DNA of 64,000 bases from Flavobacteriales bacterium (GCA_046294625.1 JBKBKN010000020.1:1-64000); one strand, 5' to 3'; positions 6,465-17,144 are shown, counted from the stretch's first letter. The notes: generated from the sequence alone by a model not told the origin. Numbers and translations are program-made.

Positions 6465-6818
6465 ATGGAATTACTCTTAGCCATCATGATTGGAATTTTG
6501 TATGCTTCTGGGCTGTATATGATCATGCGGCGAAGTTTGGTTAAAATTATTATTGGTTTGATTCTGTTGGGAAATGGAGCTAATATTTTAATTTTTCTTT
6601 TGGGTAGAATAGCCAAAGGCAAACCGCCAATCATTCCAGAAGCATCGAAAGTTTTCACAGATGTGTATGCCGATCCGTTGCCTCAAGCACTGATTCTCAC
6701 TGCCATTGTAATTAGTTTTGGCCTTCAGGCTTTTGCCATAGTACTCATCAAGCGGGTGTATAGAGTCGTTGGAACCGATGATCTTGACCAGATTAATCAG
6801 AAAGGGGAGGAAATATGA
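6465..6818 (+). CDS. mrpC: Na+/H+ antiporter Mrp/Mnh subunit C (NuoK-like)
   Basis: 117 aa with 3 TM helices, NuoK/MnhC-like, in position directly after mrpB. Confidence 0.7.
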
Positions 6819-8332
6819 CGGAGAATCTCATCATCCTTCCTGTGATTTTTCAATTGGCATTGGCTGTGCTATTGATTTTCTTTTGGAATAGAGTCAATAC
6901 TCAAAAGTACATCTCTGTTATTGGAAGCGCGATTGCTTTGGGCATTTCGATATGGTTGTTTCATACTTTATGGAATGGACCAATCCTGATCATGCAAGCC
7001 GCAGGTTGGAAAGCCCCTTTTGGAATCTCTTTTGTCGTCGATGCCTTAGCTGCGACATTGGTGCTGCTTACTTCGATAGCCGGTTTTGCGGTGAGCATTT
7101 TTTCAACGGTTACCATTAGCAAACTCAGAATGCAGTTTGGCTATTTTCCTATACTACATTTCCTTTTGATGGGTTTAATGGGAGCTTTCCTCACGGGTGA
7201 TATTTTTAATCTCTATGTTTGGTTTGAGATTATCATCATAGCATCCTTTGTCATGATGACATTAGGAGGAGAAAAACCTCAGATCGAAGGTGCGATTAAT
7301 TATGTTACGATGAACTTGCTGGCATCAGCCATTTTCTTAACAGCAATAGGGGTATTGTATGGCTTAGCCGGTACTTTGAACATGGCAGACCTCGCCATTC
7401 AAGTGGCAAAAATCGAAAATCGCGGTTTGGTAAATGTAACTGCAATTTTGTTTCTGGTAGGTTTTGGGATTAAATCAGCCGTTTTTCCGCTTTATTTCTG
7501 GCTCCCGGCATCTTATCATACTCCACCATCAGCTGTTGCGGCTATCTTCGGTGGTTTATTGACTAAAGTTGGGGTATATGCACTACTTCGTGTATTCTGT
7601 CTTATTTTTATTCCTGATAACTTCATGCTGAATTTGATGTTGTCTATTGCTGTTTTCACAATGATTTCAGGAGCATTAGGCGCTTTGATTCAGCAAAACA
7701 TTCGCAAGCTGTTTTCTTATCTGATTATTTGTCATATAGGTTTCATGATTGCAGGTCTTGGCATGTTTACGGAATGGGCAATTGTTGGATCTGTATTTTA
7801 TCTCATTCATGATGTTATTGCCAAAACCAATGTATTCCTAATTTTAGGAGTTATTTTCAAAATAAAGGGAAGCTACAAACTCAAAGAATTGGGCGGACTT
7901 TACAAATCCTATCCCACACTTTCCTTATTAATGGCTTTGGCTTTGTTTTCCTTGGTAGGAATCCCTCCTTTATCTGGTTTTTGGCCGAAACTCTATTTGT
8001 TTGAAGCCGGATTTACGAATGAACAGTATTGGATCATCGGCAGTGTATTATTTGCCAGCTTTATCACTTTATGGGTGGTAGCAAAGTTTTGGGCGGAAGC
8101 TTTCTGGAAACCCTACACCGACAGGCATGAGTTGGTAGATGAATTTATTTATTACAACGAGCTGAGACCTTCCAAGAAAATATTGATGATTGCCCCTGTA
8201 GTTATGCTTACTGCAGTGTCACTCTATATTGGACTTGGAGCAGAAAATATCATTGTATTATCAAAGAAAATAGCACATGAACTCATGCATACTGAAATTT
8301 ATATTGATGCTGTACTGAGTGGACGACAATAA
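6815..8332 (+). CDS. mrpD: Na+/H+ antiporter Mrp/Mnh subunit D (NuoN/NuoL-like)
   Basis: 505 aa with ~14 TM helices and the complex-I antiporter-like subunit pattern (WLPxAxxxPxPxSAxxxxxLLTKxGxYxLLR). Overlaps mrpC by 4 nt. Confidence 0.8.
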
Positions 8333-8334
8333 TT

Positions 8335-8817
8335 TTGAATATGGTCAAAAAACTGTTAATGAACATTTTGCTCACCCTTGTTTGGATGGCGCTCACCGGC
8401 AAATTCTCCGGAGCCAATTTCCTGTTTGGGCTTGTTCTGAGTTTCTCCATCATGTGGATTATAAGCAGAAATGATGAAGATCAACGGTATTTCAGAAGAC
8501 TTCCCGCCATTATTAATTTGATCTTCTTTTTCATCTATGAGTTAATCAAGGCCAATATTCAGGTCGCTTATGATGTGATTACCCCTAAGTTTTATATGCA
8601 ACCGGGTATAGTGGCGATACCGCTTACAGTGGAAACCGATTTGGAAATTACCCTGCTCGCTAATATGATCACACTTACCCCGGGCACTTGCAGTCTGGAT
8701 GTGTCGCCTGATAAAAAGATATTGTACGTACATGCTATGTATATCAACGATAAGGAGTCCTTTATTGAAAGTATAAAAAACGGATTTGAGCAAAAAATTT
8801 TACGAATCATGCGATAA
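8335..8817 (+). CDS. mrpE: Na+/H+ antiporter Mrp/Mnh subunit E
   Basis: 160 aa with two N-terminal TM helices and a soluble tail, at the canonical position in the mrp order. Confidence 0.65.
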   Translation: MNMVKKLLMNILLTLVWMALTGKFSGANFLFGLVLSFSIMWIISRNDEDQRYFRRLPAIINLIFFFIYELIKANIQVAYDVITPKFYMQPGIVAIPLTVETDLEITLLANMITLTPGTCSLDVSPDKKILYVHAMYINDKESFIESIKNGFEQKILRIMR

Positions 8818-8843
8818 ACTCTGTAAACATAATTTGACAGCGA

Positions 8844-9116
8844 ATGAATCTCTATGACTTTCTTTATTACATTATCTTACCGGCATTAAGCATATCCATA
8901 ATGCTGGTGTTCGTTCGTTTTATCAAAGGTCCTGATATTGTAGATCGGGTATTAGCGCTCGACCTAATCATCACCATTGGTTTAGGTCTGATAACATGCT
9001 ACAGCATCATTTATGATCAACCTACCTTTTTGGATATTGGACTGATATTAGCTTTGATTGCCTTTCTCGGCACCATTGCATTTTCTTATTATCTTGAAAA
9101 ACGTGCTAAAAAATGA
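8844..9116 (+). CDS. mrpF: Na+/H+ antiporter Mrp/Mnh subunit F
   Basis: 90 aa with 3 TM helices, in the canonical mrpF position. Confidence 0.65.
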   Translation: MNLYDFLYYIILPALSISIMLVFVRFIKGPDIVDRVLALDLIITIGLGLITCYSIIYDQPTFLDIGLILALIAFLGTIAFSYYLEKRAKK

Positions 9117-9460
9117 GAGATCTGTTAATCATGATACTATGTGGCTCCGGCACCTTATTTATTTTATTGGCCGCAATTGGCATGTTAAGAATGCCTGATT
9201 TTTACACTCGCACATCGGTAACCACCAAGGCTGTTACTTTAGGTTTAGGATTAATTCTAGCTGGTGCAGCTGTTTATTTTTCACAGATAGATGTTACATC
9301 AAGAGTGTTAGCCATTATTCTCTTTTTGATTTTAACTGCGCCGGTTGGCGCCCATATGATTGGGAGGGCAGCTTATCGCACCGGCAGTAAAATGTGGGAA
9401 AAGTCCGTTATGGATGATATGAAAGATGTGTATCAAGACAATCAGTCAAAGGAGAAATAA
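9113..9460 (+). CDS. mrpG: Na+/H+ antiporter Mrp/Mnh subunit G
   Basis: 115 aa with 3 TM helices plus a charged C-terminal tail. Overlaps mrpF by 4 nt. Confidence 0.65.
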   Translation: MRDLLIMILCGSGTLFILLAAIGMLRMPDFYTRTSVTTKAVTLGLGLILAGAAVYFSQIDVTSRVLAIILFLILTAPVGAHMIGRAAYRTGSKMWEKSVMDDMKDVYQDNQSKEK

Positions 9461-9486: not shown

Positions 9487-12400
9487 TTAACGTTTCAAAG
9501 TCACCGTTCCTGTTCGGGTAAAGAATTGTCCGCTTTCCCAGGTGAGTTCAATCAAATAGGCATAAACGTCAATCATGGCAGGTCTGCCATCGGGTCTTTT
9601 TCCATCCCAAACATCGCCCAGTTCGGTGGCATGTGCAAGCAGAATGCCTCTACGGTCATAAACATATACGTCTATTTTACGTATTCCTGTACCAAAAACC
9701 TGCAATACATCATTTAAGCCATCAGCGTTTGGTGTGAAAGTATTTGGGATATAAACAGCCCTTTTATCTAAAATACAAATCCTTTCGGTGTGGTCACTTT
9801 TGCAGCCATTTGCGTCGAAAATCAAAAGGTTAACATTAAACTCGCCTGGTTCGGTAAATTCATGGGAAGGAGTAAAAAAAGGTTCGTAAGAGTAGGTGGT
9901 TTGATCTCCCATATCCCAACTTCCTGTCAAACCACCGGAGCTTTGATCTATCAGGCTAATAAATCGCTGATCGAACTCAAGACATTGGGCTGAATTTGGG
10001 TTAATTAAAAAGTTTGCAATCACCGGAGGATGAGCAGGTAGAGTGAAGATAGTATCTTTTTTACAACCTGAAACCGGATCTGAGATTTCTAAGCCATAAG
10101 GGGTGCCAGCTTGTCCATTCAAGGTGTTACCTGTGAATGTTTGATTGCCTCTTCGCCAGATGATATTGAGATTGGGATCGCTTATTTCAATACTGGCCGT
10201 TGAAGGATCGCCAAAACACTTGATATCGTTAACAGTGAGCGTATATTCGATTGCATTGGCTACAAATATGGCGAAGGTATCGTTCACTACGGTGCAACCA
10301 TCACTAATGGTGACAATGTAATTTGTGCTTGTTGACGGATTAACGATTTGTTGCGAAACCGCAGGAAGTTCGTTGTTCCACTGAAAGGTGATTAAGCTTC
10401 CATTGCCGCCAAAAGCATTGACTTGAATATTGGCAAAATCACCTGCACATAGTGTGTCTCTGCTAATTACAGATGTAAAGTTAACACGCGGGAATACCAG
10501 AACATCTGTGGTACTTGTAGCCTGACAGAATCCTTCGCCTATTATATACTGTATTGTATGTAATCCGGCATCAGCAAGCAATGGATTGAAGCTATTTGCT
10601 ATCACTCCCGGCCCACTAAATATCCCGCCCGGAGGCTGAGCGGAGAGAGCAATCAATGTATCTCTAAAACACTGCGGATCAACAGGAGAAATGATGGCTG
10701 CTGCAAAATTACCTACTTCTATAGCGATTTGGTCTGTGCACCCGTTTGGGCTAGTATAGGTGATGATATGGCTCCCTACTCCGGCAACCGTTGGTGCGAA
10801 AATTCCCAAATCTGAGTTAGTAATTCCTGTCCCGCTGAACTGCCCACCTGCTGCATAATCTAGTAATGGGAGCTCAAAAGGGGGATTTAACTCACAAACA
10901 TTTTCTACCGCAATCAGCATTTCATCATACACGATCACTTGCATAGTGTCAGAACAAGTATTGGCTGAGTAGGTTAAAGTGAAAACCCCTTGACCGGCTA
11001 TTTCAGGATTAAAAAGAAAGGTGTTTTGCGGACCTGTTAGAGTACCTGCCCCTGTCCATACTCCGTTTGGAGGGACTATACTTGTATTATCATTGTTTAA
11101 ATTCAAAGCATCATCACCTACACAAAAGCGTAGCAGATCTTCTCCAATTACAGTTTGGCGCACTCTGGCTATAATCTGGTCTTCGCAACCATTGGGTAGG
11201 GTATAGGTCAAAGTAGCATTTGCATTGCCATTGTTAAAGGCTGGATTAAATAATCCATTGATAGGATCAATAATACCATTGCCTGACCAGACTCCGCCTG
11301 TTGGTGAAAACCCAGTAATTTGGATGAACTCTTGAGAAGGGCAAGCAAAGAAATTACTTCCGGCATCAATGGCTTTTACAAAAATGTCAAATTGGGCATT
11401 GCATCCGTTTATGGCATATGTAATCAGGTGCAAGCCACCACCAGCTTCATCGGCCGAAAATATTCCTGAAAAAGGATCTGTGATACCGTTGCCAGTCCAA
11501 ACGCCTCCTGGTGGTTGAAGTGCAAAAGCAAACTCCTGTTCTGATTGACAAATGCTATCTGTCTGAGCAGGAACATTGGTAATGAAATCCACAAATACCA
11601 TTTTTACATCGCTACAACCATTGAACGTGTAGGTGATTTCATAAGCGCCCTGAGCCTGTGGGTCAAACAAACCAGTGCTATTGGTAAATAGGCCACTCCA
11701 TGTTCCGCCTTCGGGAATGTTTCCAGTCAGTTGAAAAGGGTCAGATCCGGGGCAAGCCGCTTCATCAAACCCTGCTGAGATAGGCCTAAGATCAATAAAC
11801 ATAGTATCTGCGCAAAAAAAGTTGCTGCTGTAGAAGTAGGCATATTGAATGAGGTTCAAGCCAGGGTTGGCGCTATCTGGGTCAAAGATTCCTTGCACTT
11901 GGTCTATTATGCCGCTCCCCGACCAAAAGCCATCCAATGGGGAGCCGTTGAGTTGAAGGGGATCGTCTGACTGGCATAGCGTAAGGTCATTTCCTGCAAT
12001 TGTTTTTGGGAATAGGGTGATACTTTTTGAAGCCGAAGCCGGAAGGGCGGGAGATGTGTCATCAACAGTTACAGTGTAGGTGGTGTTGGAAACTGGACAA
12101 ACCAAATGTGGACCAAATGTGGGTGGAAGGCCGTTACTCCATGAAAAGGTATATTGCCCATTGCCTCCGGACGCCAAAGCACTGAGATAGGTGCATTGAT
12201 CAGCGCATAAACTGTCCTGCTCAGCAATTATGATAACTTCAATTGGACAGTCGAATATATCGATTTGAAAAGTTCTTTGAAATAACCATAAACTATCACA
12301 GGCATCAAGGTGTCGGTAAGTGTAAACCACCTGATAGCTTCCACCTACTGTCAAGCCCGGATTTAGCGTGAGCGAAGCTCCTGATGTTAAGCCCTGATTG

Positions 12401-13002
12401 CAAGATAATGCTTGTGCATTCACCACTGTTGCATTGGCGGGTCCGCTAATCGAAAAAACGCCTGCATAAACGGAATCGCATTTTACAGGATTGCTGAAAT
12501 TGACATTGATCACCGTCTGATTGCATGCAGGCAAGGCTGTGGAGGCAGTAATATTAGGTGGTATGGGTGGAATGATTTCTGTGCTCCAATCGGCTATCCA
12601 ACCAAAACAGGCCACATTGGCATCGCTCCTGAAATTCAAGGTCATGCAGCCACTCAACGCGGTCACGGGAGCAGGAATGCTATTGCCGGTGAGCGTTGGT
12701 CCTAGTTGTGGCGAGTTCATGTTAGGACCGTCAAATATCCTGAGCGAGTCAAAGCCGGCTTCTACACAAAAACTAAGGAAATTTAAGGTGATTGGGGCTG
12801 TTTGATTTACACAAATGGTAAAAGTGAGATTGGCATTATGGGAGTAATTTGCTCCAGGACCGCCATTGTCAAATAATCGACCTTTGCACTCAGTCACAAT
12901 GGTATCGCGCATGTTGAAGCTCATTTGCGAAAAACCCATTGATATGCTCCAAGATGAAATGAGCAAAAGCAGCAATAAACGATATCGAATGCAATGGCTC
13001 AT
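9487..13002 (-). CDS. Giant T9SS cargo protein: N-terminal CUB domain, seven tandem ~70-aa Cys-pair repeats, SprB-type repeats, and a type-B (gliding-motility-associated) C-terminal sorting domain
   Basis: Signal peptide MSHCIRYRLLLLLLISSWSISMGFSQ. Residues 39-140 have the CUB spacing (C...GxxxSPxYP-like...C-W-x-I...F-x-S-F-x-x-E...C-x-F-D-S-L-R-I-F-D-G...C). Repeats follow the pattern C-x-P...GG-x-W-S/T-G-x-G-I-x-D-P...G-x-F-x-P...G-x-H-x-I-T-Y-T...G-C. The C-terminus YIPNTFTPNADGLNDVLQVFG...DRRGILL...WDG matches the TIGR04131 / CHU_C-type T9SS domain. Confidence 0.75.
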   Translation of the reverse strand: MSHCIRYRLLLLLLISSWSISMGFSQMSFNMRDTIVTECKGRLFDNGGPGANYSHNANLTFTICVNQTAPITLNFLSFCVEAGFDSLRIFDGPNMNSPQLGPTLTGNSIPAPVTALSGCMTLNFRSDANVACFGWIADWSTEIIPPIPPNITASTALPACNQTVINVNFSNPVKCDSVYAGVFSISGPANATVVNAQALSCNQGLTSGASLTLNPGLTVGGSYQVVYTYRHLDACDSLWLFQRTFQIDIFDCPIEVIIIAEQDSLCADQCTYLSALASGGNGQYTFSWSNGLPPTFGPHLVCPVSNTTYTVTVDDTSPALPASASKSITLFPKTIAGNDLTLCQSDDPLQLNGSPLDGFWSGSGIIDQVQGIFDPDSANPGLNLIQYAYFYSSNFFCADTMFIDLRPISAGFDEAACPGSDPFQLTGNIPEGGTWSGLFTNSTGLFDPQAQGAYEITYTFNGCSDVKMVFVDFITNVPAQTDSICQSEQEFAFALQPPGGVWTGNGITDPFSGIFSADEAGGGLHLITYAINGCNAQFDIFVKAIDAGSNFFACPSQEFIQITGFSPTGGVWSGNGIIDPINGLFNPAFNNGNANATLTYTLPNGCEDQIIARVRQTVIGEDLLRFCVGDDALNLNNDNTSIVPPNGVWTGAGTLTGPQNTFLFNPEIAGQGVFTLTYSANTCSDTMQVIVYDEMLIAVENVCELNPPFELPLLDYAAGGQFSGTGITNSDLGIFAPTVAGVGSHIITYTSPNGCTDQIAIEVGNFAAAIISPVDPQCFRDTLIALSAQPPGGIFSGPGVIANSFNPLLADAGLHTIQYIIGEGFCQATSTTDVLVFPRVNFTSVISRDTLCAGDFANIQVNAFGGNGSLITFQWNNELPAVSQQIVNPSTSTNYIVTISDGCTVVNDTFAIFVANAIEYTLTVNDIKCFGDPSTASIEISDPNLNIIWRRGNQTFTGNTLNGQAGTPYGLEISDPVSGCKKDTIFTLPAHPPVIANFLINPNSAQCLEFDQRFISLIDQSSGGLTGSWDMGDQTTYSYEPFFTPSHEFTEPGEFNVNLLIFDANGCKSDHTERICILDKRAVYIPNTFTPNADGLNDVLQVFGTGIRKIDVYVYDRRGILLAHATELGDVWDGKRPDGRPAMIDVYAYLIELTWESGQFFTRTGTVTLKR

Positions 13003-13463
13003 TCTCTAATGATAAGTATAGGCGTGGTTTGTATGGTTTGACTCCAATTGTTGGCGCGGTCGCGCAATTTGATCGAAAAGGTGGTTTGCTCCTGATTGCC
13101 GTTGCCAAAGAGAAAAGTCGGCTTCATTCTTATAAAAAGTTCTCCTTGTATGGATAAATTCTGCAAATCAGGAGTTAATGGCTGCACATGAAACAGATCG
13201 GCTTGCTGCAGCCTTGCATCTTGCACCCAAATAGCAGGTTCATCAGGGTCTTCAAAGCCAATGTCTCCATCCTGATCTTCATAGCGTATGCGAATTATCA
13301 CGGAATCGCGAAATTGAACAACCGTGTCAGGCGTGATGGAAATAAAGTTGATAACCGGTGCAGTGCCTGCAGCCGTTTCTTCTTTTTTACAAGATGAAAT
13401 CATTGTGATAAGCATAATGAATAGTGAAGATAATGCGAAATGTTTCACAAGTTGGTACATCAA
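12999..13463 (-). CDS. Small lipoprotein, hypothetical
   Basis: Lipoprotein signal with lipobox ...ITMISSCKKEE. Has 4-nt ATGA overlaps with both neighbours. Confidence 0.5.
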   Translation of the reverse strand: MMYQLVKHFALSSLFIMLITMISSCKKEETAAGTAPVINFISITPDTVVQFRDSVIIRIRYEDQDGDIGFEDPDEPAIWVQDARLQQADLFHVQPLTPDLQNLSIQGELFIRMKPTFLFGNGNQEQTTFSIKLRDRANNWSQTIQTTPILIIRE

Positions 13464-14401
13464 TTTCTTTCTAGGGAATAATATTGTTTTACGTGAGCTG
13501 CACTTCCATTATTAGGCATTTCAATTGTAGCGTCATTTTCATTTACTTTAATTTGAAGCCGGACATAAGAAAGATTCGAAGGAAGCTGATTGACATTCAC
13601 CGTTATTTTAAAGGAGTAGGGCATGGGATTGCCTGAGAAACCAGGCCAGTTTTGAGTGCTTGCAATTTGAAGAGATTGACCCGCGCTTTGCGGAAAATTA
13701 TTAATATCGCTCGAAAAATAGGCTTGATTGAAAGCTAAATCGGACGCAGAAGAATTTCCGCTAACTATCGCAAACCATAAATCAATCGAGCTCACTCCTG
13801 TAGGTATTTGAATGGCGCTATTTTGAGTTGATCGGGAAAGTGCTTGATTGCTTCCGGGCAAGGTAGCCACCATTCCCGTTAATTGGATGGGTGCGGCTGC
13901 TTGTTGCGGGGTGTTGCCAAAAATATCACGTGCTCCATTTTGAATCCAGTTGTAGATATTACTGATGTATTCCTGATTTTTCGCTTCCCAGTCTGAATCC
14001 GGCTCTATCGATAGGGGCATAATACCCGATTGGCCGTCAATATCTTCAATTAAGCGTTTATAGAATTGCGACAATTGAACATTTCCCGGAATGACTCTGT
14101 AGGTGTAAATACCCTGCGGATTGTTTTTAATCACGGGATGATAAACTAAAGTATTGTATGATGATTCCACGGTGCGAAAGTCAGGCTCAAAGGTTCCATC
14201 GTGGCAACCTGAATTGGCACAGGTAGGTTTTAAAATTCTTTGATGGATTCCTGCAATGGAGTTTGGATCAATCGTTGGCTCTCCATTGTTTCCGTTGCCA
14301 TTGTTATTGTTTGATAGACTATATGGATTAATATATTCTTCCTTTTTACAGGAAGTAATTACTATCAATAAGATCAGACCTATGGATGCAATGATTTTCA
14401 T
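13460..14401 (-). CDS. Lipoprotein with CX3CH motif (possible haem- or metal-binding, PSCyt-like)
   Basis: Lipobox LLIVITSCKKEE and a poly-N/G linker, then RILKPTCANSGCHDGTFEPDF. Has 4-nt overlaps on both sides. Confidence 0.45.
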   Translation of the reverse strand: MKIIASIGLILLIVITSCKKEEYINPYSLSNNNNGNGNNGEPTIDPNSIAGIHQRILKPTCANSGCHDGTFEPDFRTVESSYNTLVYHPVIKNNPQGIYTYRVIPGNVQLSQFYKRLIEDIDGQSGIMPLSIEPDSDWEAKNQEYISNIYNWIQNGARDIFGNTPQQAAAPIQLTGMVATLPGSNQALSRSTQNSAIQIPTGVSSIDLWFAIVSGNSSASDLAFNQAYFSSDINNFPQSAGQSLQIASTQNWPGFSGNPMPYSFKITVNVNQLPSNLSYVRLQIKVNENDATIEMPNNGSAAHVKQYYSLERN

Positions 14402-15792
14402 ATTCTGTCAAATAATGATTGAGAGCCACCTTGCAGAAATCCCGATGATAATACTTCTTGTTTAACACCCAGGATTTCTGAAATAGTTGGCACGCCATCA
14501 GATGTAAGTCCAATAGGATTATTTTCACTACCTATTGAAAGATTTGAAGGCACATTTGGTCCTGCCATGATTCCAAAAACTCTTTCCGCATTAGCATCGC
14601 TATGATCATAGGCAAACCAGTCATTTTGATCGCGAATGGGATTATGATTCAAGTTTCTTCCACACTCAGGCATGGCAATGATGATGGTATTTCCTGCCAT
14701 CTCGGGCACCTGAGTTTGAATGAAATTCCAAAGGTGACCAACCGCATGATCGGCACGGTGCAATGCCCTTAAATAGCTTGTAAAATTGCTGTGACAACCA
14801 TCAACGTCGTTCATGTTGATTACAGTTAGATTGGGCTTAAACCAACGAAGCAGCTCACAAGCAAAACCGACTGTTCGCGTGTCGTTTGTATCGTTGACCC
14901 CGGGGAAAGGGATAGCTTGCTGTTGCACCCTGGTAAATACTGAATTCATGAATTGTTTGATATTGTATTTCTCCTCGTCAGTGTTACCTAATGCATCTAA
15001 TCCTGTTCCCATTCTATCGAAACTATTGTCGAGAAAAAGTTTCATCTTATAAACCGGATCAAGTTCATATTCCGGGTGATAGGCTTTTGCATTGGCAAGG
15101 TGCATTTGTCCGAGTTGGCCGAATGTGATTCCCGGTGCAAAAAAATTAGCCCCAAACCTAGCTCCATAATCTGGGTGACTGCTGTGATTGAGCAATGGAA
15201 CTGAATTGTTGATGCCATTCCCCACAAACCAAACTTTAGAAGCCGGATAGCCACCATGTCGACGTATGTATTCAAAAATAGTTGGATTTACAGGCTTTTG
15301 TTTCAATCCCTGAGTGGTTACCATACTCCCTTGGAGCAGCTGATTAAGCCCTCCATAATGACCGGTGGATCCAGAACGAACTTCTCTAAATAGCGTGCCT
15401 TGTGTTTGCAGAGTTTGATTGAGTATTTTTGGAATAGGTGTTCCTCCTTCAGCGCCGCCACCTTGATTGGTGCCGAACACTATCTTTTGTGAAGGAGATG
15501 GACCATTGAGCATGTTATGCATGAGGTTCCCTTCGTAGGGCTCTCCTTGACTATCGGCCAAATAGCGCTGTAAAATAGATTCCTGTTGCCTTACACCTCC
15601 TGCAAAAAGTACATAAACAACATGCTCGGCCAATTGACTTCCTGTAGCGGCAAACAATCTCCCACTGGGCAGAATGTAGGGCAGGGTAAATGCACCGGCT
15701 GTGGCAGCAGCTCCTGTTTTGATGAATTTCCTTCTGTTCATGGCTTTTGGTGTAAATGTATCAGTAGAAAAGATATTCGTCAGACAGTGCAA
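14398..15792 (-). CDS. Tat-secreted DUF1501-like protein (sulfatase / alkaline-phosphatase superfamily)
   Basis: Twin-arginine signal MNRRKFIKTGAAATAGAFTLP. It is ~460 aa with an overall pattern reminiscent of DUF1501 (C-terminal MPECGRNLNHN...DHSD). This is a family assignment from memory, not a search. Confidence 0.4.
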   Translation of the reverse strand: MHCLTNIFSTDTFTPKAMNRRKFIKTGAAATAGAFTLPYILPSGRLFAATGSQLAEHVVYVLFAGGVRQQESILQRYLADSQGEPYEGNLMHNMLNGPSPSQKIVFGTNQGGGAEGGTPIPKILNQTLQTQGTLFREVRSGSTGHYGGLNQLLQGSMVTTQGLKQKPVNPTIFEYIRRHGGYPASKVWFVGNGINNSVPLLNHSSHPDYGARFGANFFAPGITFGQLGQMHLANAKAYHPEYELDPVYKMKLFLDNSFDRMGTGLDALGNTDEEKYNIKQFMNSVFTRVQQQAIPFPGVNDTNDTRTVGFACELLRWFKPNLTVINMNDVDGCHSNFTSYLRALHRADHAVGHLWNFIQTQVPEMAGNTIIIAMPECGRNLNHNPIRDQNDWFAYDHSDANAERVFGIMAGPNVPSNLSIGSENNPIGLTSDGVPTISEILGVKQEVLSSGFLQGGSQSLFDRI

Positions 15793-16255
15793 AGGAGTAA
15801 TATACCAATTCAGCTGTCACTTGAGGGTTGGATTGAAGAAAATTTTTGAACCACTGTCGTTCAGCTTCTGTTGGTTTTCTCACAAAAAAACGTTCATAAG
15901 TCTCATCCAAAAAGGAATCGGTTTCGTTACGCATATAATCATTAGAAGGCAATATCACCCCTGGTTGGTTCATAAAGTTGCTGATAATGACTTCACGAGC
16001 CAATTCTTTGTCTCCAATTGATTCCATGCTGTTGATGATTTGCACCAATTGATTACCTGAAAGGGCGGTTTGAAAAAGATTGGTGTACAGAATAGAAATG
16101 TATTGTTCTTTCGTCTTGGGTTTGGTTTTGTTGCCGGAAAAGCCTCTTGCATCCACAGCATTCAGCTCATAAATTCGTTCCGGCTCTTTCTTGCAAGACA
16201 TAATTGCTAGCATGAAAAGCCCCACCCCCAATATTTTAAAAGTTTGCATACTCAT
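15761..16255 (-). CDS. Lipoprotein with DUF1549/DUF1800-like R-x-P-T-x-x-E motif
   Basis: Lipobox LAIMSCKKE. Contains FFVRKPTEAERQWF and ends ALSDEYLFY, the same ending as its upstream neighbour. Confidence 0.4.
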   Translation of the reverse strand: MSMQTFKILGVGLFMLAIMSCKKEPERIYELNAVDARGFSGNKTKPKTKEQYISILYTNLFQTALSGNQLVQIINSMESIGDKELAREVIISNFMNQPGVILPSNDYMRNETDSFLDETYERFFVRKPTEAERQWFKNFLQSNPQVTAELVYYSFALSDEYLFY

Positions 16256-17144
16256 CGCTCATCATCATTTGGGTTTGAATGTGTTGTAGATTTTTATTGA
16301 CAAAAAATGCATTCAGGTATTGATCAATCTCCGCTGTACTTGGTTGTCGCGCCAATAAGGTGGTGTAAAGCCAAATGATGACACCTTGATGGGCTTCACG
16401 TGCATTAATCATGATTTGAATGAAATCTGATTTATTGATTCCAGGCATTTGAAAGAGTGTCCCGGCTTGGTCATTTTCAACCATTTCATAAGCAATTAAA
16501 AACTCAGTTTGTGTGGGAAAACGAAACAGCAAGTCATTAAAGGCTGCATTCACAAAGTTGAAGGCATTCATGTTAATAAAATCATAAATACTATTTTGGA
16601 GCATGTAGGCATACATTTGCATGATATTGATTTCACCTTGCTGATAACGCAGCCTCGATTCAACAACATTTTTAAGGTTATTAGCTTCAAGTAGTGCTTC
16701 CGACGCTGAAACCATATTTCCGCCCAGTGAGTCACTTAGATAGCGCTGGAGAAAAATATTTCTTTCGTCTTGTATATATTGATCTGATGCTCCTTCAAGA
16801 AATCGAATTTTACTCAACTCATAAATTCTTTTGAAGTAAGCCAATTGATATGAACTGTCTCCTTCCACATATTCTGTGGAGGACATCAACATTTCGATAA
16901 GCGACTTTCGGCTTTCATTGCTCAAATTTGCACTTCGCAAACGAGCCACTTCCTGATCCATTTCTATATTATTAGGCTCTCTTCCGATGAGATCTATAAA
17001 TATACGGTTCACATAATTTCTGATTTTCACTGTAGGCACCTTGCTGTAATCAGGTATTTGATTATCGGGCATTACAACAATTTCTTCCTGACATGAAGAG
17101 AAAAGAATCAAACAACCAACCAACACATAGAAAAAGCGCTTCAT
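16236..17144 (-). CDS. Lipoprotein with two copies of the DUF1549/DUF1800-like motif
   Basis: Lipobox ILFSSCQEE. Contains RIFIDLIGREPNNIEMDQ and LLARQPSTAEIDQYLNAF, and ends MSDEYANF. It is the first gene of the coupled operon. Confidence 0.4.
   Translation of the reverse strand: MKRFFYVLVGCLILFSSCQEEIVVMPDNQIPDYSKVPTVKIRNYVNRIFIDLIGREPNNIEMDQEVARLRSANLSNESRKSLIEMLMSSTEYVEGDSSYQLAYFKRIYELSKIRFLEGASDQYIQDERNIFLQRYLSDSLGGNMVSASEALLEANNLKNVVESRLRYQQGEINIMQMYAYMLQNSIYDFINMNAFNFVNAAFNDLLFRFPTQTEFLIAYEMVENDQAGTLFQMPGINKSDFIQIMINAREAHQGVIIWLYTTLLARQPSTAEIDQYLNAFFVNKNLQHIQTQMMMSDEYANF

Follow-up and report, generated by a model that had tools for sequence, protein, structure and literature searches.

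A bacterial CUB domain with a conserved putative Ca2+ site on a predicted type-B cargo protein of the type IX secretion system in Bacteroidota

Results

Layout of the CUB-bearing cargo protein

The window analysed here is a 64,000-nucleotide stretch of a Flavobacteriales bacterium (GCA_046294625.1 JBKBKN010000020.1:1-64000), and its subject is a minus-strand open reading frame (ORF, 9487-13002) that encodes a protein of 1171 residues with a CUB domain near its N-terminus, referred to below as the CUB protein (Table 1). A preliminary description of the window had read residues 39-140 (positions 12583-12888) as a metazoan-type CUB domain on a type IX secretion system (T9SS) cargo protein. The presence of a CUB domain on a T9SS cargo is borne out by a match to the Pfam CUB profile, the predicted fold, the conservation of residues of the CUB Ca2+ site and matches to the T9SS sorting-domain families CHU_C and TIGR04131. 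Every peptide string quoted in that description is present in the translation, including FDSLRIFDG, which corresponds to residues 84-92. An NCBI entry that is 100% identical to the CUB protein, from a 64,021-bp contig of a Flavobacteriales metagenome-assembled genome (MAG), carries the name [quoted passage not shown].

The protein begins with a predicted signal peptide whose last residue, at position 25, is Ala, Gly or Ser in the orthologs. The residue directly after the predicted signal-peptidase site, Gln26 (12925-12927), is kept in 109 of 120 orthologs. In Bacteroidetes, exported proteins follow a "Q-rule", by which the N-terminus carries a pyroglutamate. In keeping with this rule, the signal peptide is probably cleaved before Gln26, which would then become the mature N-terminus and be converted to pyroglutamate. 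Cleavage at this site would leave the CUB domain as the first part of the mature protein. A proline-rich linker and a second, Ig-like domain follow, in which five cysteines (C160, C175, C201, C235 and C252) are invariant among 25 full-length orthologs. The long stalk behind it contains seven units of ~70 residues with a G-G-x-W-S-G ... G-x-F-x-P motif: five were found by a motif scan (starting at residues 432, 499, 569, 719 and 792) and two by eye (DGFWSG at ~358 and NGVWTG at ~647). In the ortholog alignment, Cys, Gly and Trp columns of the stalk are conserved. At the C-terminus, the sorting domain matches Pfam CHU_C (E 9.3e-11, 42.2 bits against a cut-off of 27) and TIGR04131 (E 2.8e-10, 40.2 bits against a cut-off of 35). 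From this sorting domain and the hydrophobic N-terminus, the CUB protein is predicted to be a T9SS type-B cargo.

Table 1 Features of the CUB protein, its putative Ca2+ site and the genes upstream of it. Positions are counted from the first letter of the window.
Feature	Position	Strand	Basis or remark
CUB / T9SS type-B cargo gene, 1171 residues	9487..13002	-	ORF; Pfam CUB, PKD and CHU_C matches
Signal peptide (predicted), residues 1-25	12928..13002	-	hydrophobic LLLLLLISSW core
CUB domain, residues 27-145	12568..12924	-	Pfam envelope residues 36-137 = 12592-12897
P-P-x-P-P linker and second (Ig-like) domain, residues 150-253	12244..12555	-	weak Big_5 match, residues 161-226
Stalk, residues 254-1000	10003..12243	-	SprB-like repeats at both ends (partial SprB-repeat match); boundaries approximate
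PKD domain, residues 1004-1073	9784..9993	-	Pfam PKD_4 E 1.5e-7, PKD E 3e-6; just upstream of sorting domain
T9SS type-B C-terminal sorting domain, residues 1085-1171	9490..9750	-	CHU_C, TIGR04131
Y53, tyrosine of putative Ca2+ site	12844..12846	-	119/120 orthologs; counterpart of the "nYP" tyrosine in the cubilin and PCPE-1 alignments
E81, first acidic residue of putative Ca2+/ligand site, = PCPE-1 Glu60	12760..12762	-	120/120 orthologs; alignment to 6fzv_D
D85, second acidic residue, = PCPE-1 Asp68	12748..12750	-	120/120 orthologs; alignment to 6fzv_D
D127, third acidic residue, = PCPE-1 Asp109, in conserved S-D-A-N-V loop	12622..12624	-	114/120 orthologs; alignment to 6fzv_D
g302, lipoprotein, first operon gene	16236..17144	-	weak DUF4214 / PSCyt2(DUF1549)-like matches; 70/82 loci
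g164, small lipoprotein	15761..16255	-	weak DUF4214-like match; 73/82 loci
g464, TAT-exported alkaline-phosphatase/sulfatase superfamily enzyme	14398..15741 (ORF 14398-15792)	-	
g313, lipoprotein	13460..14401	-	invariant T-C-A-N-S-G-C-H-D-G ... M-P ... W-I-x-x-G-A block (67 orthologs)
g154, small lipoprotein	12999..13463	-	lipobox ...SSC then KKEE; stop overlaps CUB-gene start

Identity and fold of the CUB domain

In the full-length protein, residues 36-137 match the Pfam profile PF00431 along its positions 5-108 (of 110) with 35.0 bits, above the cut-off of 21.4 (E 1.9e-8), and the isolated domain scores 40.7 bits. The same profile is matched by 36 of 37 sampled orthologs. When the domain was compared with all PDB sequences by phmmer, only CUB proteins were retrieved, with E values of 2e-14 for cubilin, 1e-7 for PCPE-1 and 1.6e-5 for neuropilin-2. 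The structural model agrees with this assignment: it shows the antiparallel beta-sandwich (jelly-roll) of ~110 residues that is expected of a CUB domain. The best PDB matches, by sequence and by fold, are all animal proteins, and no clear bacterial CUB structure ranked among them; identity to the animal CUBs is only 21-28%. Taken together, homology and predicted fold leave little doubt that residues ~27-145 are a true CUB homolog.

A cysteine pattern of its own

The CUB domain has five conserved cysteines (C39, C64, C79, C119 and C132), none of which occupies a canonical CUB position. In the Pfam register and in the alignments with cubilin and PCPE-1, canonical C1 falls approximately at R32, C2 at L59, C3 in a four-residue deletion between E81 and F84, and C4 at T105. 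The four cysteines that had been listed earlier can be corrected accordingly: C39, C79 and C119 were placed correctly, the second is C64 and not C63, and the fifth, C132, had been overlooked. Their apparent CUB spacing is coincidental. Because no cysteine lies at a canonical position, the C1-C2 and C3-C4 disulfide bonds of the classical pattern are absent, and the term "metazoan-type" is not supported for a domain that uses other, co-varying pairs. Animal CUBs that lack one disulfide do exist, for example ADAMTS13 CUB2 (PMC8051872), so the missing canonical cysteines do not bar the domain from the family.

The pattern of loss among 120 orthologs points to the pairs that are used instead. C79 and C132 disappear as a pair every time either is lost (18 of 18; Fisher p 9e-22). 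For C64 and C119, joint loss is seen eight times, with one loss of C64 only and two of C119 only (p 5e-10), and C39 is almost never lost. The C64-C119 pair recurs in other T9SS proteins: among 461 of their CUB copies, both cysteines occur together 119 times, C119 on its own nine times and C64 on its own never (p 2e-100). None of these 461 copies has a cysteine at canonical C4, and the C79-C132 pair is absent from CUB copies of other T9SS proteins, being specific to this family. From this co-loss, bacterial-specific disulfide bonds C64-C119 and C79-C132 are predicted. C39 probably bonds outside the CUB domain; C160 of the next domain can be guessed at as its partner. In proteins with tandem CUB domains, the partner of the equivalent cysteine seems to sit in Cys-rich linkers. 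Canonical bonds C39-C64 and C79-C119 were considered and rejected on the alignment register and the co-loss data. An assignment of C39 as canonical C1 was likewise rejected, as a cysteine at position 39 and one at canonical C2 (position 59) almost never occur together in other bacterial CUB copies.

A complete Ca2+-site signature

In the subset of CUB domains that bind Ca2+, the ligand site is formed by the Ca2+ loops (PMC8051872). The signature of this subset, a Tyr together with Glu, Asp and Asp in loops L5 and L9, is complete in the aligned sequence of the CUB protein (Y53, E81, D85 and D127; Table 1). Equivalent positions in PCPE-1 were taken from the phmmer alignment to chain 6fzv_D and the residue numbering of PMC6372009. 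Phe84, just before D85, corresponds to the stabilising Tyr67 of PCPE-1. In addition, the loop residues D45, G47, H55, N56 and S126 are near-invariant among the 120 orthologs. In PCPE-1, Glu60, Asp68 and Asp109 coordinate Ca2+, Glu60 and Asp109 form salt bridges to a lysine of the ligand, and mutation of Asp68 leaves no measurable procollagen binding (PMC6372009). With the corresponding residues conserved, it is quite likely that the bacterial domain has a functional Ca2+ site. Confidence in any specific ligand is low.

Distribution of the family and of bacterial CUB domains

Orthologs of the CUB protein fall into more than 400 clusters with a nearly constant length of ~1170 residues, most of which carry a precomputed Pfam CUB match. 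When each GTDB species was represented by one genome, the scan found relatives in at least 129 species, all of them Bacteroidota. Carriers belong to the Saprospiraceae, Chitinophagales, Flavobacteriales, Lewinellaceae and Cytophagales and include Pontibacter sp. G13 (CP134696.1). With few exceptions they are MAGs recovered from the environment, namely from ponds, lakes, activated sludge and sea water; Sanyastnella coralliicola and Pontibacter sp. G13 are cultured carriers. Overall identity within the family is 28-47%.

The domain itself is far more widespread. A profile of it, run against 1.84 billion representative proteins, retrieved 18,818 at E <=1e-3 and 1,768 at E <=1e-30. The best 150 matches are giant proteins with multiple CUB domains, with up to 34 copies in 6578 residues (P0242), and 93 of these 150 end in a T9SS sorting domain according to an iterated profile. 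A Pfam check of C-termini among the same 150 confirmed six of seven, including the top match. The 34-copy protein, which heads the series P0242-P0391 and is of metagenomic origin, ends in a Por_Secre_tail T9SS domain. The earlier assumption that CUB domains are rare in bacteria does not survive these counts, and a literature search for CUB domains in T9SS proteins or in Bacteroidota found no relevant paper. The CUB domain is a normal and abundant part of the secreted proteins of Bacteroidota, with a sequence flavour of its own, and not an isolated animal-like acquisition.

A conserved six-gene operon

Six genes run in the same direction here, with the CUB gene at the end, and stop and start codons overlap among the last four (Table 1). 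A scan for promoters and terminators gave counts equal to those in shuffled sequences. To compare gene neighbourhoods, 82 loci were seeded with the CUB protein and searched by tblastn with the five upstream proteins. All six genes keep their order and orientation in ~70 of the 82, and the exceptions come mostly from contigs that stop short. In 78 of 82 loci, the next gene upstream of the CUB gene is that for the small lipoprotein g154. Seeding with homologs of g464 recovers the operon in Sanyastnella coralliicola (CP132543.1) and in CP064979.1, where the large protein is again CUB-like at its N-terminus. In both of these genomes, Sanyastnella coralliicola and the other Flavobacteriales genome, a PorP_SprF shuttle gene directly follows the gene for the CUB/type-B cargo (L083, 15215-16213; L084, 15251-16369).

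None of the five operon partners has a Pfam match above cut-off, an NCBIfam match or a PDB relative. The enzyme g464 has the fold of the alkaline-phosphatase/sulfatase superfamily and a signal for twin-arginine translocation (TAT); its true start is probably M18, at 15741. The remaining four are lipoproteins in which K-K-E-E or Q-E-E follows the lipid-modified Cys, a feature that resembles the surface-export signal of Bacteroidota. A suspected likeness of g313 to the planctomycete PSCyt1 cytochrome domain and of g464 to DUF1501 was not reproduced by Pfam at E values up to 10 and is a lead at most. In g313, residues ~58-130 contain C-x4-C-H with a Met ligand as a possible haem-binding site. This block may be a variant of a c-type haem site, although it is offered as a lead that no tool supports. 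On the other side of the CUB gene, genes of a Mrp/Mnh-type Na+/H+ antiporter lie on the plus strand (6815-9460) and converge on its 3' end, with 26 bp between the stop codons; they comprise a Pfam Proton_antipo_M subunit and MnhE, followed by two small membrane ORFs. The convergent neighbours downstream of the CUB gene are mnhF/G-like.

Discussion

The probable role of the CUB protein, on balance, is that of a Ca2+-dependent ligand-binding head on a T9SS type-B surface fibre, which is vertically inherited and works together with the products of its operon. In cases that have been studied, a type-B domain directs export and also attachment or targeting to the cell surface (PMC12618676). The sorting domain of the CUB protein would accordingly serve for T9SS export and hold the protein at the surface. 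As the CUB domain lies directly behind the signal-peptide cleavage site, it would sit at the far end of the stalk, opposite the C-terminal sorting domain, as the distal tip of a chain of beta-sandwich domains that is ~1000 residues long. Its fold would be held by C64-C119 and C79-C132 instead of the canonical CUB disulfides. The near-invariant Tyr and acidic triad make a Ca2+-dependent recognition head the most likely function: by analogy with animal CUBs, these four residues would bind Ca2+ and clamp a lysine or arginine of the ligand. The head would probably capture or position a substrate or partner for an envelope system of lipoproteins and a hydrolase, and its target could be external, a substrate or a surface, or else a protein encoded by the operon itself. 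For the functional coupling of the CUB protein with the operon as such, the evidence tips modestly in favour.

Several observations weigh against this interpretation. Ca2+ binding and ligand recognition are deduced from the alignment, and the triad is kept less often elsewhere among bacterial CUB copies (E81 in 51%, D127 in 62%), so the Ca2+ site is not universal among bacterial CUBs. According to PMC8051872, strands beta1 and beta2 are missing from animal Ca2+-binding CUBs, which have two four-stranded sheets; in the model, DSSP assigns two short extra N-terminal strands to residues 28-30 and 34-36, which may or may not correspond to beta1 and beta2 of the spermadhesins. No PorP/SprF shuttle gene adjoins the CUB gene of the window, and SprF-like matches were absent both from the window and from the 82 loci seeded with the CUB protein. 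Orphan type-B substrates, without an adjacent sprF-like gene, are documented (PMC12618676), and the CUB protein of the window would be an orphan in that sense. Three loci (L015, L042 and L046) contain the gene and at least 8 kb upstream of it and lack most or all of the operon; these may be paralogs or rearrangements. Finally, g464 has a TAT signal and neither a lipobox nor a T9SS domain. It would probably be periplasmic and the CUB head extracellular, and a direct hand-over between the two is not obvious.

The preliminary description had suggested a different history, in which a metazoan CUB domain was acquired by horizontal transfer and mimics ligands or adhesion molecules of a host. That the best sequence and fold matches in the PDB are all animal proteins can be cited in its support, though no bacterial structure stood out for comparison, as can the treatment of prokaryotic CUBs as "eukaryotic-like" in the literature (PMC7848895; PMC2605481). 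Yet the low identity to animal CUBs, the absence of all canonical cysteines and their replacement by bacterial-specific pairs, one of which recurs in the CUB copies of other T9SS proteins, and the prevalence of T9SS cargo among the best profile matches all speak against it. So do the spread over several Bacteroidota orders with conserved synteny and the base composition: the G+C content of the CUB-coding part is 0.457, compared with 0.41-0.48 in the rest of the gene, and a compositional test for recent transfer was negative. The family was sampled in ponds, lakes, sludge and sea water and not in animal hosts, and because the carriers are free-living, host mimicry is unlikely. An animal origin with mimicry is thus highly improbable, and it is very likely that the CUB protein belongs to an ancient, vertically inherited bacterial family.

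Two further explanations accept a bacterial origin and differ in the role of the head. It could recognise a protein of its own operon, such as Lys or Arg on a surface lipoprotein, and thereby act as an assembly module of a fixed envelope complex that has no external ligand. The six genes are strictly co-linear and translationally coupled, which fits such a role, as do the four lipoproteins with their presumed surface-export motifs and the fact that a basic residue is typically what animal Ca2+-binding CUBs recognise in a protein partner (PMC6372009). A head that lies ~1000 residues from its anchor would, however, be an odd device for binding a membrane-proximal lipoprotein, and this explanation is considered unlikely. 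Alternatively, the protein could be a generic SprB-like adhesin for gliding or attachment, with the CUB domain as one more beta-sandwich that has no specific site, and with an incidental link to the operon. The "gliding motility-associated" name in NCBI and JGI, the SprB-like repeats next to a type-B domain, and the general prediction of type-B substrates as adhesins (PMC12618676) are consistent with this. Against a featureless sandwich stand residues of the Ca2+ site and its loops (D45, G47, Y53, H55, N56, S126 and D127) that are near-invariant in so divergent a family, and the constant length and constant operon point to a specific, conserved role; the generic adhesin is distinctly unlikely.

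Beyond the preferred reading of a Ca2+-dependent head, a broader picture is possible rather than likely. The CUB-tipped fibre may be the extracellular arm of an undescribed Bacteroidota envelope system of six genes (seven with PorP/SprF), composed of four lipoproteins, one perhaps haem-binding, and a TAT-exported hydrolase of the alkaline-phosphatase superfamily that belongs to no Pfam or NCBIfam family. The bacterial clade of Ca2+-binding CUBs, to which its head would belong, may also match the animal CUB domain in age or even be its ancestor.

The view of CUB as an essentially animal extracellular module fails for metagenomic sequence space. Very many CUB-bearing proteins are secreted by Bacteroidota via the T9SS, and no study of any of them was found. 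The present family offers a clean entry point, with a single CUB domain, conserved Ca2+/ligand-site residues, a fixed architecture, cultured carriers and a linked operon of six unannotated genes. Its ligand, once solved, would show what bacterial CUB domains do, and could reveal the role of a widespread orphan operon, one of whose products forms a new branch of the alkaline-phosphatase superfamily. It would also bear on the evolutionary origin of a module that is central to complement, collagen processing and axon guidance. Further work is best spent on the wholly unannotated conserved operon and on the abundance of CUB arrays in bacteria, and of the operon and the CUB domain the operon is the more interesting lead.

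Comparison with known systems

The closest known parallels include the animal Ca2+-binding CUBs, among them PCPE-1 CUB1/2, cubilin CUB5-8, TSG-6 CUB_C, neuropilin a1/a2 and C1r/C1s/MASP. The CUB protein has none of the four canonical cysteines. In addition, the loop that carries C3 is four residues shorter here, other disulfides are predicted, and the model has the two extra short N-terminal strands noted above. The bacterial domain also stands as a single copy at the predicted mature N-terminus of a T9SS protein.

Among bacterial proteins, multi-CUB T9SS cargo (P0242 with 34 copies, P0251 with 13 and P0001 with two) shares the C-x-G-x-L-x-D-S-G-G ... N-Y motif, the C64-C119 pair, the lack of C3 and C4, a frequent Y/D/E/D set and secretion by the T9SS. 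Those proteins are tandem arrays, mostly with a type-A (Por_Secre_tail) sorting domain, whereas the CUB protein has one CUB domain, a fixed stalk, a type-B domain, a dedicated operon and the additional C79-C132 pair. Type-B substrates, as described in PMC12618676, have in common with it the TIGR04131/CHU_C domain, SprB-type repeats and a long repetitive stalk, and their orphan members also the lack of an adjacent sprF-like gene that is seen in the window. That paper mentions no CUB head, and the CUB protein differs further by an operon with an enzyme and lipoproteins; unlike in the orphans, PorP_SprF follows directly in some relatives (Sanyastnella coralliicola and CP064979.1). Prokaryotic CUB domains were noted earlier in a Bdellovibrio subtilisin-CUB protein (NP_967057.1) and in sponge-symbiont Thaumarchaeota, with a role that was "not clear" (PMC2605481; PMC7848895). 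These are likewise Pfam CUB domains in secreted prokaryotic proteins, from other phyla and in other architectures, and the papers list the domain without an analysis of its residues, structure or gene context.

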